From: Candidatus Limnocylindrales bacterium
GTDB lineage: Bacteria; Chloroflexota; Limnocylindria; Limnocylindrales; CSP1-4
Direction: 5' to 3'
Assembly (NCBI GenBank): GCA_035692745.1
Contig: DASSHR010000322.1
Span: 1-46,794 of the forward strand
DNA: 46,794 nucleotides
In this document: piece by piece, positions 16,482-23,663 of the stretch
How the letters are laid out: each line of letters starts with the position of its first letter
Numbering within the stretch: the stretch's first letter is position 1
The notes under the pieces: model-generated
Database searches by the model: none
What the model saw: only the letters and a program-made list of their open reading frames with translations
What the model was told of the DNA's origin: nothing
Made by a program: the position numbers and the translations under genes

Positions 16482-18176
16482 ATGACCGCATCGACGCCGT
16501 CACGGAGGCCCCGCGCGCTGCTCCTCGGCCTCGGCGTGATCGTGGCCGTGGTTGCGATCGGGGGCGCCGCGACCGCGCTCGGGCTCGCGCCATGGTCGCC
16601 GGCAGCCACCGACGGCGTCCCGATCCCCCACTTCATCGATGAGACGGCCTCCTCCGGCGTCGACTTCACGTCGGGCGGCGACGTGACGTACTCGGTCGGC
16701 GGTGGGGTCGCCGTGTTCGACTGCAACGACGACGGCCGTGAGGACCTGTACCTCGCCGGCGGCACGGATCCCGCGGCCCTGTTCCGGAACGACAGCCCGA
16801 CCGGCGGTGCCCTGGCGTTCACGCGGCTGGCCGATCCGGCCACCGACCTCGACGCCGTGAACGGGGCCTACCCCATCGACGTCGACGGCGACCGCCGCAT
16901 CGACCTCGTCGTGCTCCGCAACGGCGAGAACGTCGTGCTCCGCGGCCTCGGTGACTGTCGGTTCGAGCGGGCCAACGAGCGCTGGGGGCTGGACGGCGGC
17001 GACGAGCTCACCGAGGCGTTCAGCGCGACGTGGGAGCCCGGCGCCACCTGGCCGATGGTCGCGTTCGGCAACTACGTGGACCCGACGCAGGACGATCCGT
17101 CGCGCTGGTGCGAGCCGAACCAGCTCGTTCGGCCGGCGGCGGGAGCAACGCCCGGGTTCGGAGATGGGCAGCCGCTCGACCCGAGCTGGTGCGCGCTGTC
17201 GATGCTGTTCAGCGACTGGGACGGGTCCGGCCGGATGGACCTGCGCATCAGCAACGACCAGCACTACTACCCCCCGGAGCTCGGCGAGGAGCAGCTCTGG
17301 CGCATCGAGCCCGGAGCCACCCCGCGGCTGTACACCCCCGACGATGGCTGGCGGCTCGTCCGGATCCAGGGCATGGGCATCGCCAGCCAGGACCTGACGG
17401 GCGACGGGCTGCCGGAGATCTACCTCACGAGCCAGGCGGCGAGCCGGCTCCAGACGCTGGCGTTGGGACCGTCGAAGCCGACATACATGGACATCGGATC
17501 CGCCCGCAACGTCAACGTGGCGCAGCCGTTCGCGGGCGGCGAGCACCTGCCGTCAACGGCCTGGCATCCCGAGTTCGAGGACGTGAACAACGACGGGCGG
17601 CTCGATCTCTTCGTGTCCAAGGGCAACGTGACGACCCAGCCGGACTACGCCCAGAAGGATCCGAGCAACCTCCTCCTCGGCCTACCCGACGGCACCTTCC
17701 GGGAGGTCGCGGACGTCGCCGGGATCCTGTCCTTCGACCGCGGGCGTGGCGCCGCCCTGGCCGATTTCAACCTCGACGGCTGGCTCGATCTCGTCGAGGT
17801 GAGCTACGGCGCGCCGGTCCGACTCTGGCGGGGCACCGGCACGGACGCGGCGCGCGGTGGCGGGCACCCGGGCCATTGGCTCGCGCTCCGCGTGCGCGAG
17901 GGCGGCCCGAACGTCGATGCCATCGGCGGCACGCTGGAGGTCCGGTTCGGCGACCAGGTGGTGCGGCACGAGCTCACGATCGGTGGCGGGCACGCCGGCG
18001 GCCAGCTCGGCTGGGTCCACGTCGGGCTCGGCGCCGCGACGAGCGCGGAGGCCCGCGTCCATTGGCCGGACGGGACCGACGGCCCGTGGCAGGCGCTCGG
18101 CGTGGATGGCTTCGCCGTGCTGGATCGTGATGCGCCCGGGCCGATTGCCTGGCAGCCCGGAGCTCCCCTGCCCTAG
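16482..18176 (+). CDS. CRTAC1-family protein: FG-GAP/VCBS repeats + ASPIC/UnbV C-terminal module, N-terminal signal anchor
   Basis: Real part of ORF 15543..18176 from ATG 16482 (MTASTPSRRPRALLLGLGVIVAVVAIGG...). Repeats: FDCNDDGREDLYLAG, IDVDGDRRIDLVVL, SDWDGSGRMDLRISN, QDLTGDGLPEIYLTS, EDVNNDGRLDLFVSKG, ADFNLDGWLDLVEVS. These are followed by GGTLEVRFGDQVVRHELTIGGGHAGGQ. Confidence 0.8.
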   Translation: MTASTPSRRPRALLLGLGVIVAVVAIGGAATALGLAPWSPAATDGVPIPHFIDETASSGVDFTSGGDVTYSVGGGVAVFDCNDDGREDLYLAGGTDPAALFRNDSPTGGALAFTRLADPATDLDAVNGAYPIDVDGDRRIDLVVLRNGENVVLRGLGDCRFERANERWGLDGGDELTEAFSATWEPGATWPMVAFGNYVDPTQDDPSRWCEPNQLVRPAAGATPGFGDGQPLDPSWCALSMLFSDWDGSGRMDLRISNDQHYYPPELGEEQLWRIEPGATPRLYTPDDGWRLVRIQGMGIASQDLTGDGLPEIYLTSQAASRLQTLALGPSKPTYMDIGSARNVNVAQPFAGGEHLPSTAWHPEFEDVNNDGRLDLFVSKGNVTTQPDYAQKDPSNLLLGLPDGTFREVADVAGILSFDRGRGAALADFNLDGWLDLVEVSYGAPVRLWRGTGTDAARGGGHPGHWLALRVREGGPNVDAIGGTLEVRFGDQVVRHELTIGGGHAGGQLGWVHVGLGAATSAEARVHWPDGTDGPWQALGVDGFAVLDRDAPGPIAWQPGAPLP

Positions 18177-19765
18177 GTCGTGCTCGGCGGGAGCACCGCG
18201 ACCAGCAGCCAGCGCTCGCCCGTCGCCCGCCGGACCGCGAACACCTCGTCGAACGGCGCCTCGGTCGTGGAAACCACCACCCCGGCGGCATCCCGGGTCT
18301 GGTCGGTCCGCGTGCCGGTCATGCGGAAGCCGAGGCTGAAGCCGTCCTGCTTCCCGAACGGGACGAGCAGCGAGACCGTCCCGGCGTCGAAGTCGTAGGT
18401 GGTGAGCACGGTCTGCCCGCTGGCATGGGCGTCGAGCAGTCGCTGCGTCATCTCGGCCAGGCGATCGCCGTGGTCGGCGACCGCGAGCAGCGAGCGATCG
18501 TCGTGCAGGAGCGCCTCGTTCTCGATCGCCAGGTTCTGCGCCAGGGTGATGAGGATGGCGTTGATGCCCGGGCCGGCGAACGACGGATCGAAATCGGTCA
18601 CGTCCTGGCCGACGGTGACCGGTGGCAGGGTCGATGGGTCGACCTGGCCGGGCAGCCGGTTCAGCACCTCCGCCGACACCGGCAGGGTCACGCCCCGGGC
18701 CGGCGTGCCGGCGACCACGATGCCGGTGCCCAGGATCGCCAGCGCCACGACGGCGGCCACGCCCGCGACACCGCGCCGCCCGGCGCTGGCGGCGGGATCG
18801 CCGCCGGTCGCGAGGCGGTCGGCGAAGGCTCGGAGCCGGTCGGCGGCCGATTTCGGCTCCGGCAGGACGCGCTCGAGGAGCGGTCGGGTCGCGCAGACCA
18901 CGACGAGACCGGAGAGCAGCCCGACCTTCGCCCCGAACTCGGTCGTCTGCGGCGCGATCAGGATCGTGCTGACCACCGCGACGAGGAAGCCGAACACGAC
19001 CCGTCCGACCCGGCCGCCGGGCACGGTCTTGGGATCCGTGATCATGAAGAACAGGAAGATCAGGATCTCCGGCGACGTCACGATCGAGCGCCAGAAGTCG
19101 ACGCCGCACACGGGTGCGAACGACCAGCGCGTGACCATGCAGTGCCCGGACGCGGCGAGCAGCCCGAGGCCCACCGCGAGGGTCCCCCAGAACGTCGCGG
19201 CGAGGATCAGCAGGTGCAGCCGCCGCGTGATCAGCACGCCGCCGACGAGGATTACCCCGTAGGCGAGGAGCATCGCCGGGTTGGTGATCGGCGCCCACCA
19301 GAAATCGAGCGGCTCCACTCGTGTCGAGCCAAGGATCACGAAGGTCAGCACGAGGCCCAGGTTGGCCGGGTTGAAGACGTGGGAGCCGCGGTAGCGGATG
19401 ACGTACTTCGAGAGGAGCGAGAGGCCGGCCACGCCGGCGAAGAGCCACCAGGCGTACGTGGTCCAGTGGTCCCCGGGCGCCGTCCCGACGACGCGCATGA
19501 TCAGGGCCACGGCGCTGCCGGTGAGCATCGCGCTCGCGGGCCACACGAAGGACTTCGTCTGCCAGAAGGTGATGCCCACCTCCAGCAGCCAGCAGATGCC
19601 GATCGCGGCGACGATCTGCGGCACGCTGACCCAGAAGCCCAGGCCCACCTGGCCGAGCAGGTGCACCGTGAGGACGACGATCGCGACGTGCAATCGCGGA
19701 TCGCGCACGTTCGGAAGGACGAGCGGATAGCTCCCCTGCCCGATGGTGACGGTCCGCGCGGTCAT
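18173..19765 (-). CDS. RnfD/NqrB-like polytopic membrane protein with extra TM helix and ~190-aa C-terminal extracytoplasmic-looking domain
   Basis: 530-aa clean ORF. Blocks SHVFNPANLGLV and FFMITDPKTVP resemble the FNPA and MxTDP blocks of the NQR2/RnfD/RnfE family. After about residue 330 there is the TM helix GVAGVAAVVALAILGTGIVVAG and then a soluble domain. A TATGAT -10-like hexamer (plus 19774-19779) lies 8 nt before the ATG. Confidence 0.65.
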   Translation of the reverse strand: MTARTVTIGQGSYPLVLPNVRDPRLHVAIVVLTVHLLGQVGLGFWVSVPQIVAAIGICWLLEVGITFWQTKSFVWPASAMLTGSAVALIMRVVGTAPGDHWTTYAWWLFAGVAGLSLLSKYVIRYRGSHVFNPANLGLVLTFVILGSTRVEPLDFWWAPITNPAMLLAYGVILVGGVLITRRLHLLILAATFWGTLAVGLGLLAASGHCMVTRWSFAPVCGVDFWRSIVTSPEILIFLFFMITDPKTVPGGRVGRVVFGFLVAVVSTILIAPQTTEFGAKVGLLSGLVVVCATRPLLERVLPEPKSAADRLRAFADRLATGGDPAASAGRRGVAGVAAVVALAILGTGIVVAGTPARGVTLPVSAEVLNRLPGQVDPSTLPPVTVGQDVTDFDPSFAGPGINAILITLAQNLAIENEALLHDDRSLLAVADHGDRLAEMTQRLLDAHASGQTVLTTYDFDAGTVSLLVPFGKQDGFSLGFRMTGTRTDQTRDAAGVVVSTTEAPFDEVFAVRRATGERWLLVAVLPPSTT

Positions 19766-20481: not shown

Positions 20482-20850
20482 ATGAACGAATCCGCCCGAG
20501 CCACCACCGCGCGAGAGCGTGACCGCGCCCTTCGTCGACTCCGTTCGATCACCACGGGCACGGCCGTCGTCGCGACGATGGCAACGGCCGGGTTCGGCAC
20601 GCTCGCCGCGTTCACGTGGTCGGGCGCGTCCACCGACGCGACCGCCGAGCAGGACGACACGGGCACGGTCACGACCGACACCACGATCACCACCGGCGTC
20701 GTCGGCGGCGACGAGGACGCCGACATGCTGCCCGACGCCGAGGCACCAGCGACCGCGGCGCCACAGACCGCGGCGCCACTCCAGCCGACGCCCACGCCGA
20801 TCGCGACCACGAAGCACAAGAGCCGCGTCACGAGCGGAGGCTCCGGGTGA
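20482..20850 (+). CDS. Small single-pass membrane protein with low-complexity Thr/Asp and Pro/Ala tail (no recognisable domain)
   Basis: ATG 20482 (MNESARATTARERD...), TM helix ITTGTAVVATMATAGFGTLAAF, C-terminus ...KHKSRVTSGGSG. Its TGA overlaps the GTG of apbE (GTGA 20847-20850), which argues that it is translated. Confidence 0.5.
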   Translation: MNESARATTARERDRALRRLRSITTGTAVVATMATAGFGTLAAFTWSGASTDATAEQDDTGTVTTDTTITTGVVGGDEDADMLPDAEAPATAAPQTAAPLQPTPTPIATTKHKSRVTSGGSG

Positions 20851-21791
20851 TCCGCTGGCGCGCGCTGGGCACGCATGTCGACCTGCTCGTCCATCGCGGC
20901 GACGCCCGCGTTGCACGCGCCGCGGTCGAGGCCGTCCTGGCGGACGTCGACCGGACATACAGCCGCTTTCGACCGGACAGCGAGCTCGTCGCACTCAACG
21001 CACGAGCCGGCACGACCGTTGAGCTGAGCCCGCTGCTCGCCCGCGCGATCGGGGTCGCAATCCGAGCCGCACGCCAGACCGACGGCCTGTGCGATCCCAC
21101 GATCGGGCGTGCGCTGCTGCGCATCGGCTACGACGCCGACTTCGCCGCGATCGCGGCGAGCAGCGCACCGATCGAGCTGCGCATGGAGCGCGTCGCCGGC
21201 TGGCGGTCCCTCCGGTTCGACGAGGCGGCGCGGACGTTGCGGGCGCCGGCCGGCGTGGCGATCGACCTCGGCTCGACCGGCAAGGCGCTTGCGGCCGATC
21301 TCGCGGCGGAGGCCGCCGTCGCGGCGATGGGTCGGGGCGGGGTGCTCGTCAGCCTGGGTGGCGACCTCGCCGTCGCCGGCGACGTGCCCGCGGACGGCTG
21401 GCCGGTCCTCGCCGCCGATGATTCGACGGCGCCAGCACGCCGCGGTGGCGAGGTCATCGCGATCCGGGACGGGGCCATCGCCACGTCGAGCACGACCGTT
21501 CGAACCTGGCGCCGCGCCTCGGTCGTCGTCCATCACCTCATCGATCCGCGCACCGGAATCCCGGCGCGCAGCCCGTGGCGGACCGTTTCGGTTGCCGCGG
21601 CCACCTGCGTCGATGCGAACGCCGCGGCCACGGCCGGGCTCATCCGGGGCACGGACGCGCCGGGCTGGCTCGAGGGCCTCGGCTTGGCGGCCCGACTCGT
21701 CACGCTCGAGGGCGAGATCGTGCGCGTCGGCGGCTGGCCGATGCCGGCATCCGCCGCGCCCGCGCCGACCTCCGCAGGACGTGCCGCGTGA
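20847..21791 (+). CDS. apbE: FAD:protein FMN transferase (ApbE family), no signal peptide visible
   Basis: Real part of ORF 20616..21791 from GTG 20847 (VIRWRALGTHVDLLV...). Blocks: RFRPDSELVALN, DPTIG, DLGSTGKALAADL, SLGGDLAV, TSSTTVRTW, HHLIDPRTG. Confidence 0.85.
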   Translation: MIRWRALGTHVDLLVHRGDARVARAAVEAVLADVDRTYSRFRPDSELVALNARAGTTVELSPLLARAIGVAIRAARQTDGLCDPTIGRALLRIGYDADFAAIAASSAPIELRMERVAGWRSLRFDEAARTLRAPAGVAIDLGSTGKALAADLAAEAAVAAMGRGGVLVSLGGDLAVAGDVPADGWPVLAADDSTAPARRGGEVIAIRDGAIATSSTTVRTWRRASVVVHHLIDPRTGIPARSPWRTVSVAAATCVDANAAATAGLIRGTDAPGWLEGLGLAARLVTLEGEIVRVGGWPMPASAAPAPTSAGRAA

Positions 21792-22385: not shown

Positions 22386-23663
22386 GTGAGCGCCGTCCGT
22401 GTCCTGGCGGGGCCGCCGCTCGAGCGGGGCGCCGAGTCGTACCTCGAGCACGTCGCGCGGCTCGGCCCGCTGCCGCTGTCGCAGGCGCAACGCACGTTGA
22501 TCCCCGAGCTCGAGGCGAGCGGCCTGCTCGGCCGCGGTGGCGCGGGCTTTCCGGTCGGTCGGAAGTGGCGGTCGGTCGCGGAGCGAGCGCACGGACGGGG
22601 CGCGGTCGTGCTCGTCAATGGGGCCGAAGGCGAGCCGCTGTCCCACAAGGACCGCACGATCCTTGCCCTGCGCCCGAACCTCGTCCTCGATGGCGCGCAG
22701 CTTGCGGCCGAGGCCATCGGCGCGAACGAGATCGTGCTGTACGTCGGCGAGACCGCCGAGGCGGCCACCGATGCCCTCCAGCGCGCCGGCGCGGAACGTC
22801 GGGCGGCGGGCGCGGGCTCGAGGGTGCCGATTCGCATCGCCCGTGCGCCCGACCGCTACGTGGCCGGCGAGGAATCGGCCGCGGTCCGCTTCGTCAACGA
22901 GGGTGACGCACGACCCGTGACCACGCCGCCCCGGCCGTTCGAGCGCGGCGTCGCCGGCCTGCCCACCCTCGTGCAGAACGTCGAGAGCCTCGCGCACGCT
23001 GCCCTCATCGCGCGCAGCGGCGCGGACTGGTATCGCGCCGTCGGCGAGGGCGACGCGCGCGGCACGGCGCTCGTCACGGTCACGGCGCCGGGCGGCAGGC
23101 CGGTGGTTCGTGAGGTCGAGCTGGGTCGCACCATTGGGGAGGTCGCGCGGCTCGACGCGGCACGTCCCGGCGACGGCACGTCGGCGGCGACCGCCTCGGA
23201 TACCCAGGCGGTGCTGCTCGGCGGCTACTTCGGGCGCTGGATCGATGCCGGCACGGCGTGGGGCCTGCCGCTCAACCCGGACATCCTGCGACAGCACGGC
23301 CTGTCGATGGGCGCCGGCGTCGTCGCATTCCTGTCGACGTCGACGTGCCCGATCGTGGCGACCGCCCGCATCGCCGAGTACCTGGCGGCGCAGAGTGCGG
23401 CGCAATGCGGCCCGTGCGTGTTCGGGCTGCGGGCGATCGCGGACGCGGTGACCCGCCTCGCACGGCTCGAGGCACACCGGGAGGACTGGGCGAACGTCGA
23501 GCGCTGGGCCGCCCAGGTGAAGAACCGCGGCGCGTGCCGGCATCCGGACGGGGCGGTGGGTTTGCTCGAAAGCGCGCTCGTGACGTTCGAGGGCGAGCTG
23601 GAGCGGCACTGGCATCGGCGCGGCTGCTCCTTCTCGGCCGGCGTCCGCAGCCGGGCTGCGTGA
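22386..23663 (+). CDS. NuoF-like NAD(P)H-oxidising flavo-iron-sulfur protein (stand-alone)
   Basis: ORF 22344..23663; start GTG 22386 (alt ATG 22344 would overlap the FRD gene). Blocks: GRGGAGFPVGRKW, NGAEGEPLSHKDR. Cys ligands: QCGPCVFG and GACRHPDG. Confidence 0.8.
   Translation: MSAVRVLAGPPLERGAESYLEHVARLGPLPLSQAQRTLIPELEASGLLGRGGAGFPVGRKWRSVAERAHGRGAVVLVNGAEGEPLSHKDRTILALRPNLVLDGAQLAAEAIGANEIVLYVGETAEAATDALQRAGAERRAAGAGSRVPIRIARAPDRYVAGEESAAVRFVNEGDARPVTTPPRPFERGVAGLPTLVQNVESLAHAALIARSGADWYRAVGEGDARGTALVTVTAPGGRPVVREVELGRTIGEVARLDAARPGDGTSAATASDTQAVLLGGYFGRWIDAGTAWGLPLNPDILRQHGLSMGAGVVAFLSTSTCPIVATARIAEYLAAQSAAQCGPCVFGLRAIADAVTRLARLEAHREDWANVERWAAQVKNRGACRHPDGAVGLLESALVTFEGELERHWHRRGCSFSAGVRSRAA

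Follow-up and report, generated by a model that had tools for sequence, protein, structure and literature searches.

The window analyzed here was a stretch of 46,794 nucleotides (nt) from a Candidatus Limnocylindrales bacterium (assembly GCA_035692745.1, contig DASSHR010000322.1), and the element in question is a small gene, P0001, that directly precedes the gene for ApbE, the FAD:protein FMN transferase (FAD, flavin adenine dinucleotide; FMN, flavin mononucleotide). P0001 runs on the plus strand from an ATG at 20482 to a TGA at 20848-20850. Its product of 122 amino acids (aa), referred to below as the tag protein, consists of a basic N-terminus (RERDRALRRLR), a hydrophobic stretch (ITTGTAVVATMATAGFGTLAAF), an acidic Thr-rich part and then a Pro/Ala-rich part, and it ends in KHKSRVTSGGSG. 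The initial annotation of this DNA had described the same open reading frame (ORF), with this composition and ending, and had noted that its TGA overlaps the start codon of apbE; coordinates and translation agreed on these points, the ApbE GTG at 20847 lying within a GTGA. The genes downstream of apbE, which encode an MsrQ-like membrane protein, a NuoF-like protein, and a small ferredoxin, were chained by overlapping or near-touching stops and starts (Table 1). Comparison with related sequences suggests that the tag protein is most likely a new, fold-less carrier of covalently tethered flavin.

Table 1. Features of the tag protein gene and its surroundings (positions in the window).
Feature	Position	Strand	Evidence or remark
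Small tag protein gene P0001, 122 aa	20482..20850	+	Unnamed family, ~220 clusters at 50% identity
Basic N-terminal segment RERDRAL.RLRSIT running into single hydrophobic helix	20509..20616	+	AlphaFold2 helix, residues 10-45
Predicted disordered linker, residues 47-100, Thr/Asp/Ala/Pro-rich	20620..20781	+	pLDDT 43-60; sequence and length vary among relatives
Conserved C-terminal tail, residues 101-122, LQP.PTP...KHKSRVTSGGSG	20782..20847	+	Alignment; pLDDT ~75
Candidate flavinylation motif V116-T-S-G-G-S121	20827..20844	+	Logo, 145 relatives
Ser121, proposed FMN acceptor	20842-20844	+	
GGAGG Shine-Dalgarno-like pentamer inside the Gly-Gly codons	20836..20840	+	6 nt before the ApbE GTG
ApbE (FAD:protein FMN transferase), 314 aa (P0002)	20847..21791	+	PF02424, 163 bits vs. 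cut-off 25.6
MsrQ-like/ferric-reductase-type membrane protein, 194 aa	21788..22372	+	PF01794; GTG overlaps ApbE stop
NuoF-like protein (Nuo51 FMN/NADH domain and 4Fe-4S region)	22386..23663	+	PF01512, PF10589
Small ferredoxin, 85 aa	23663..23920	+	PF13459 (Fer4_15); ATG overlaps NuoF-like stop by one base
530-aa membrane protein	18173-19765	-	RnfD/NqrB match, 19.1 bits vs. cut-off 27.7 (sub-threshold)

The tag gene is real, coding, conserved, and separate from apbE. P0001 had no Pfam or NCBIfam match at E <= 0.01, and family members were annotated as hypothetical proteins in all sources, save one called RodZ. Twenty close metagenome homologues shared 49-97% identity and the same plan with P0001, and nearly all were 112-127 aa long. 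An exhaustive profile search of 1.84 billion representatives (E <= 0.001) retrieved 221 clusters; almost all of the best 150 of these 221 relatives were 90-140 aa long and were matched up to the protein end, and none of these 150 was fused to ApbE, since the longest reached at most 244 aa. Third-position GC of the tag gene was 0.89 overall. Against five orthologues, the ratio of nonsynonymous to synonymous substitution rates (dN/dS) was 0.10-0.42 in the N-terminus and helix, 0.34-0.65 in the linker, and 0.26-0.59 in the C-terminal tail; the ORF is under purifying selection in its own frame. The initial annotation had reckoned with a small ORF that might show no conservation at all, which the approximately 220 clusters and the purifying selection contradict.

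The initial annotation had also considered that the ORF might be the detached membrane anchor and linker of ApbE, arising by gene fission or by an indel in sequencing or assembly. The ApbE of this locus has no anchor of its own, and both frames are indeed open across 20616-20850, as had been pointed out, with the ApbE frame open back to 20616. However, over 20616-20846 the third-position GC was 0.93 in the tag frame and 0.66 in the ApbE frame, the latter having a GC of 0.94 at position 1; this marks the tag frame as coding there and the upstream extension of ApbE as non-coding. A search for related loci with alignment of the closer relatives gave eight loci, and the tag and ApbE genes were separate at every locus examined. 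A continuous, anchored ApbE was found at none of them, and in L014 the two genes even lay in the same frame with a stop between. The junction was either an overlap (GTGA or TGATG) or a short gap, with the ApbE domain beginning 9-31 nt past the tag stop, and such junctions occurred in approximately 21 loci from several Chloroflexota families. The detached-anchor explanation also conflicts with the lack of fusions among the best 150 relatives and with the position of the tag stop, which always fell 0-3 residues past a conserved motif. Separate genes in every related locus and a non-coding ApbE extension exclude a frameshift, an indel of the assembly, or recent fission, and we consider it highly improbable that the tag ORF is a lost part of ApbE.

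AlphaFold2, run on P0001 with 69 relatives, predicted a single helix at residues 10-45 (predicted local distance difference test score, pLDDT, 86-94) and coil everywhere else, with a pLDDT of 43-60 in the linker and approximately 75 in the last 20 residues, which were without secondary structure. One helix plus coil leaves P0001 without an FMN_bind fold, and a compact alpha/beta domain of approximately 80-120 residues bearing the motif was not predicted; this model and the missing profile match bore out the earlier remark that the ORF has no room for such a fold. The same plan, comprising a basic N-terminus, one helix, a Thr/Ser/Ala/Gly/Pro linker of approximately 70 residues, and a C-terminal motif, was common to the family of approximately 220 clusters. 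The part following the helix had a family median of 69 residues, of which Thr, Ser, Ala, Gly, and Pro made up 70%, and contained no Cys. Among close relatives, Q101, P106, V116, S118, G119, G120, and S121 were invariant. The best 19-residue Kyte-Doolittle window had a family median of 1.65 and a value of 1.39 in P0001. Net charge averaged +2.7 in the N flank and -0.7 in the C flank, the N side being more positive in 97% of family members, and this asymmetry predicts an N-in, C-out topology. The tag protein is thus predicted to be a small bitopic membrane protein with a cytoplasmic N-terminus and the tail outside. A twin-arginine translocation (Tat) signal was considered for R18 and R19 of P0001 and was rejected, as the twin Arg was not kept in relatives.

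The C-terminus was the only feature retained throughout the family. ApbE recognizes D-x-x-[S/T]-G-A-[S/T], the last residue of which is flavinylated (PMC12052999), and P0001 matched this motif with S121 at position 0, G119 at -2, and S118 at -3. A logo was drawn from 145 relatives that were chosen for bearing the C-terminal motif out of 165 sequences retrieved. Within this selection, position -6 was occupied by H (88), R (23), or Q (23), position -5 by V (86) or A (54), position -4 by T (83) or S (49), and position -3 by T (81) or S (64), whereas positions -2 and 0 were G and S, respectively, in 145/145. Position -1 was G in 136, S in 6, and A in 3 relatives, the last being the canonical G-A-S. 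The sequence stopped immediately after the acceptor Ser in 73 relatives, whereas 39 added G and 17 added H; across the family, the stop codon followed the motif [H/R/Q]-[V/A]-[S/T]-[S/T]-G-G-S within 0-3 residues. The resemblance of the terminal TSGGS to a flavinylation motif, which the initial annotation had called loose, therefore held at -3, -2, and 0, and G-A-S variants of it exist. As a genome-wide control, the ending [ST][ST]G[GAS]S plus 0-2 residues was sought in the source genome among all stop-to-stop ORFs with a length of 60 aa or more, 19,093 in number. Only 14 of the 19,093 carried it, 12 of these being Arg-rich wrong-frame sequences, and the remaining two, which look like real proteins, were the ORFs directly preceding the two ApbE genes of the genome. 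The motif is therefore beyond chance, being rare genome-wide and borne by plausible proteins only in front of the two ApbE genes.

P0001 also contained a canonical SGAS at residues 47-50 (20620-20631), directly past the helix, which the initial annotation had overlooked. This membrane-proximal site was rejected as the real one, as it was kept in 2 of 69 relatives vs. 68 of 69 for the C-terminal motif; it is probably no conserved modification site, although it could still be labelled in P0001.

A second feature overlooked before was that the motif codons of P0001, AGC GGA GGC TCC, contain a GGAGG that doubles as the ApbE ribosome-binding site. The conservation of Gly-Gly-Ser might accordingly be a mere nucleotide constraint, imposed by the ribosome-binding site and start of ApbE that overlap the end of the ORF, and the position of the pentamer just before the ApbE GTG in the source locus is what such a constraint would produce. 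However, GGAGG occupied the corresponding place in only 4 of 39 distinct related loci, in which the Gly codons of the motif varied (GGC, GGA, GGT, GGG) and the Ser codons likewise. The motif was also kept in paralogues that are not followed by apbE and at loci where a spacer of 10-30 nt parts the genes. Since the codons vary and the motif persists with no apbE next door, selection acts on the peptide and not on the DNA, and the chance that the ribosome-binding site accounts for the motif is very small. The codon of the acceptor Ser was TCN (TCC, TCG, TCA) in all 39 loci and never AGY, and the Ser at -3 was mostly encoded by AGC.

The distribution of the family linked it to ApbE. The 401 genomes sampled belonged to the phylum (Candidatus Limnocylindrales and other Chloroflexota) and are related to each other, so that the counts are given without a formal statistic. 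The tag family occurred in 47 of the 401 genomes, and ApbE was present in 46 of these 47 vs. 232 of the 401 overall; the single remaining tag-bearing genome had only weak partial ApbE matches. Among 29 loci fetched from other genomes, ApbE lay directly downstream of the tag gene in approximately 16 and directly upstream in two, and some further loci had it within a few kb. The order tag, ApbE, Ferric_reduct, NuoF-like, Fer4_15 recurred on contigs from different samples (L014-L017). In some genomes (G432, G322), a single ApbE had two tag genes around it, an arrangement more easily understood for substrates than for a partner in a one-to-one ratio. In the ApbE tree, the clade of ApbEs beside G-G-S tags enclosed those beside G-A-S tags in two or more places; G-A-S tags thus arose at least twice among G-G-S tags, and for one lineage of ApbE it seems to make no difference whether Gly or Ala stands at -1. 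L021 and L029 (the latter from G314, of the same genus as the source) had an identical tag tail and the same distance to ApbE. Their taxonomic labels conflict, L021 being labelled Candidatus Dormiibacterota and other relatives of the source Limnocylindrales/Chloroflexota. Two tag paralogues lay away from apbE (in L056, G322:C4, and L057, G400:C7): one behind a histidine kinase near LiaF-like genes, and another beside a DUF1801 protein and a NosD-like beta-helix protein.

The source genome, a metagenome-assembled genome (MAG) of 2.39 Mb in 446 contigs and 77% complete, contained two ApbE genes. Both ApbEs were signal-less, and the gene immediately before each encoded a small anchored protein with an ending of this type. 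For the second ApbE (contig C407, locus L011), this neighbor was approximately 139 aa long, anchored, and probably coiled-coil; it ended in TTGASGG, which includes the canonical [S/T]GA[S/T], and had no sequence similarity to P0001. The same kind of protein preceded paralogous ApbEs in related genomes (L003, L006, L010), and the two types of neighbor corresponded to two deep clades of the ApbE tree. The TTGASGG protein has the look of another kind of C-terminal tag protein, dissimilar to the first. At this second ApbE locus (L011, approximately 1009-1429), and also in L003, L006, and L010, the ApbE gene was further preceded by a fragment of a haem-type membrane protein and an anchored coiled-coil protein ending in DDDGGFDD. 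FMN_bind (PF04205) and DUF2271 gave no match above cut-off in the source genome, G314 (93% complete), G322, and G247, and NqrB/RnfD gave none above cut-off in the source genome or G314; a search with PF12094 (DUF3570) had no match in its control genomes. Given that no known substrate domain was found, these ApbEs would lack a known substrate if the tag proteins were not their substrates.

These observations also bear on a different role, in which the tag protein is an unmodified structural or assembly subunit, an adaptor in the membrane that brings the MsrQ-like cytochrome together with the soluble ApbE or with the NuoF-like protein, with the C-terminal peptide serving for docking or regulation. 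At one locus (L058, G119:C70, 2346-4612) MsrQ-like and NuoF-like genes came immediately after the tag gene without an intervening ApbE, which links the tag with the cytochrome module as such. A partner needed in stoichiometric amounts would fit the close translational coupling to ApbE, the cytoplasmic segment and helix were the most constrained part of the protein (dN/dS 0.1-0.4), and at -1 and -6 the motif is not the canonical one. On the other hand, agreement with the acceptor motif at -3, -2, and 0, switches to G-A-S, and a chain that stops right at the acceptor Ser in half of the family are features that one would not anticipate in a peptide used for docking. An adaptor would likewise leave the ApbEs with no known substrate at all, and it accommodates neither the TTGASGG of the dissimilar protein before the second ApbE nor the two tags found with one ApbE. 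A purely structural role is therefore regarded as unlikely, although it deserves more weight than a detached anchor or a nucleotide constraint.

The ApbE encoded downstream (P0002) belongs to the ApbE family by both its PF02424 score, which was above cut-off, and its catalytic blocks. In an alignment with TM1553 (1vrm) and Treponema pallidum Ftp (4xdt), the conserved blocks DPT.G, DLG..K, GGD, HH.IDP.TG.PA, and DA.A..TA were all kept. The PF02424 match started at residue 7, which leaves no room for a signal peptide, and there was no lipobox; the ApbE is thus signal-less, as the initial annotation had stated. The MsrQ-like protein had two His pairs (H49/H63 and H125/H138), and its PF01794 gene was clustered with a flavinylation component, as in MsrQ-like flavinylation-associated clusters. 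The NuoF-like protein matched TIGR01959 below the cut-off and has an alternative start at ATG 22344. It retained a GRGGAGFP motif, and its cysteines followed the pattern C ... QCGPC ... GAC, unlike the C-x2-C-x2-C of NuoF. The upstream neighbors were an AhpD/CMD-like gene and the gene for the 530-aa membrane protein on the other strand. This RnfD-like protein had an extra C-terminal part, and its place beside the CMD-like gene and the operon was kept in L015 and L017 but not in L014. It was considered as the true target of ApbE and rejected, as it contained no [ST]G[AGS][ST] anywhere and its Pfam score was below the cut-off.

MsrQ-like flavinylation clusters have been described, 31 of them with a NuoF-like gene, and an FMN_bind gene is typical of them (Meheust et al., 2021, eLife, PMC8238504). 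The same authors proposed transmembrane electron transfer from NAD(P)H (the reduced nicotinamide adenine dinucleotides) to an acceptor that is flavinylated, restricted their set to components bearing a signal peptide or lipobox, so that signal-less ApbEs were dropped, and pointed out that unidentified ApbE substrates remain (PMC8238504). The locus studied here resembles the MsrQ-like/NuoF-like subtype in that ApbE is clustered with a PF01794 dihaem protein and a NuoF-like (PF10589) module. Unlike those clusters, neither the locus nor the assembled genome had an FMN_bind gene, extracytosolic flavinylation machinery with such a gene was thus not present at the locus, and ApbE had no signal peptide. 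The operon also differs in its ferredoxin and in the slot held by a fold-less protein with a C-terminal S-G-G-S. Furthermore, the hosts are Chloroflexota (Limnocylindrales-type MAGs), in contrast to the Actinobacteria of the published NuoF-like clusters.

The chemistry of engineered tags is also relevant. Seven residues suffice for ApbE, tags work best at protein termini, Ser is accepted as the acceptor, and cytosolic ApbEs exist; the effect of changing Asp to Ala is minor, whereas Gly to Ala and Ala to Val approximately halve labelling (PMC12052999). A C-terminal GVDGLSGATLTS tag was fully labelled in the cytoplasm of Escherichia coli by a truncated ApbE (PMC9400968). Flavinylation of a terminal peptide is therefore feasible. 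The tag protein is like this engineered Flavin-tag (Tong et al., 2021; PMC9400968; PMC12052999) in being paired with a signal-less ApbE and in offering a short unstructured terminal peptide, which in the Flavin-tag needs only the seven residues that end in the acceptor (PMC12052999, PMC9400968). However, the Flavin-tag is artificial, was copied from NqrC (GVDGLSGATLTS), and is used as a label with no known role in electron transfer, whereas the tag described here is natural and differs at -1 and -6. Known substrates (the FMN_bind proteins NqrC, RnfG, and PplA; NqrB/RnfD; DUF2271; DUF3570) share with the tag protein a Ser/Thr acceptor, Gly at -2, Ser/Thr at -3, and a gene adjoining the cognate apbE, and rare family members even have the canonical Ala at -1. 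In contrast, their motif is located inside a folded domain or membrane protein, whereas here it forms the last 4-7 residues of a predicted disordered tail, with Gly at -1 and His/Arg/Gln in place of Asp at -6. Huang et al. described the structural context of flavinylation sites as highly varied, yet the substrates described are folded. The fumarate reductase pair of Klebsiella pneumoniae (PMC12052999) also has an ApbE without a signal peptide and a target encoded nearby, but that target is a soluble enzyme with an FMN_bind-type domain and not a membrane-anchored, domain-less tail predicted to face outward. No published description of natural C-terminal flavinylation tags was found in a search that lay mostly outside subscription journals.

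Taken together, the invariant [ST]-G-G-S, the G-A-S variants, the linkage to ApbE, and the lack of a known substrate domain favor the other proposal of the initial annotation, namely that the small protein may be a minimal flavinylation tag and thus a new substrate class. The balance leans slightly toward a model in which ApbE flavinylates Ser121 and the MsrQ-like haem passes electrons to the FMN, held on its flexible leash. ApbE would move FMN from FAD onto Ser121, most likely in the cytoplasm, because both ApbEs of the genome are without a signal peptide. Being at the end of the chain, the tag would emerge last from the ribosome, which would then go on to apbE, and the tail would be translocated after flavinylation. 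The tethered FMN could then stand in for the FMN_bind protein of ordinary MsrQ-like clusters as the acceptor for the outer haem, with electrons passing from NAD(P)H to the NuoF-like protein (FMN, Fe-S), the ferredoxin, the MsrQ-like dihaem protein, the FMN on the leash, and an acceptor outside the membrane.

Several points weigh against this model. The flavin on the tag protein is a prediction from sequence comparison; inferred likewise are the residue that carries it, the topology, whether modification precedes export, and the direction in which electrons flow. P0001 has Gly120 at -1, where known substrates are described with a conserved Ala, and Arg115 at -6 instead of Asp, this position being His/Arg/Gln across the family. 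The Gly-Gly codons of P0001 also form the ribosome-binding site of ApbE, the helix of P0001 is only marginally hydrophobic, and approximately one third of the family members in the sampled loci had no ApbE within 1.5 kb. Moreover, the tail is predicted outside, but the tag-linked ApbEs examined have no room for a signal peptide; the puzzle of a signal-less ApbE with an apparently extracytosolic target, raised in the initial annotation, is therefore a real one. With an outside tail and a non-exported ApbE, the model needs modification before export, for which we know of no precedent. Modification in the cytoplasm followed by export of the tail would be the simplest reconciliation of the conflict in location. 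That the flavinylated tail is indeed threaded across the membrane, so that the FMN on its leash of approximately 70 residues is reduced by the dihaem MsrQ-like protein and reaches acceptors in or beyond the cell envelope, is put forward only tentatively, as a possibility on the doubtful side.

The conflict in location would vanish if the tail were flavinylated but stayed in the cytoplasm, where its FMN would bridge the gap between the ferredoxin or NuoF-like protein and the inner MsrQ-like haem. The helix would then not be a true N-in anchor or would only pack against a partner, which suits its marginal hydrophobicity in P0001; both ApbEs of the genome are signal-less, and cytosolic pairs of ApbE and substrate are known, such as that of K. 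pneumoniae (PMC12052999). However, the positive-inside rule gives N-in, C-out in 97% of the family, and the Thr/Ser/Pro-rich, Cys-free linker appears to resemble an extracytoplasmic linker. With the NuoF-like protein and the ferredoxin, the cytoplasmic side is moreover already supplied with a flavin and with Fe-S carriers, and the flavinylated partner is extracytosolic in ordinary MsrQ-like clusters (PMC8238504). A cytoplasmic flavinylated tail is thus regarded as rather improbable, somewhat more so than an adaptor role.

All confirmed ApbE substrates so far hold their flavin within a folded domain or a membrane protein. If the tag protein is flavinylated as proposed, a C-terminal peptide on a disordered tether would constitute a new substrate class and would explain part of the ApbEs that are still orphans. 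The engineered Flavin-tag would then have a counterpart in nature, and ApbE flavinylation would be placed within an MsrQ-like system, a known type of cluster with a new kind of substrate slot. The tag protein would also offer a fold-less, tethered alternative to FMN_bind domains and secreted flavin shuttles, one in which no export of FAD is needed, and would raise the question of how a cofactor attached in the cytoplasm ends up outside the cell. A G-G-S tag and its cognate ApbE could be added to the existing labelling pair as a second one, perhaps free of cross-reaction with it. For the abundant uncultured Chloroflexota of soil and freshwater, the system would represent a candidate route of extracytosolic electron transfer.

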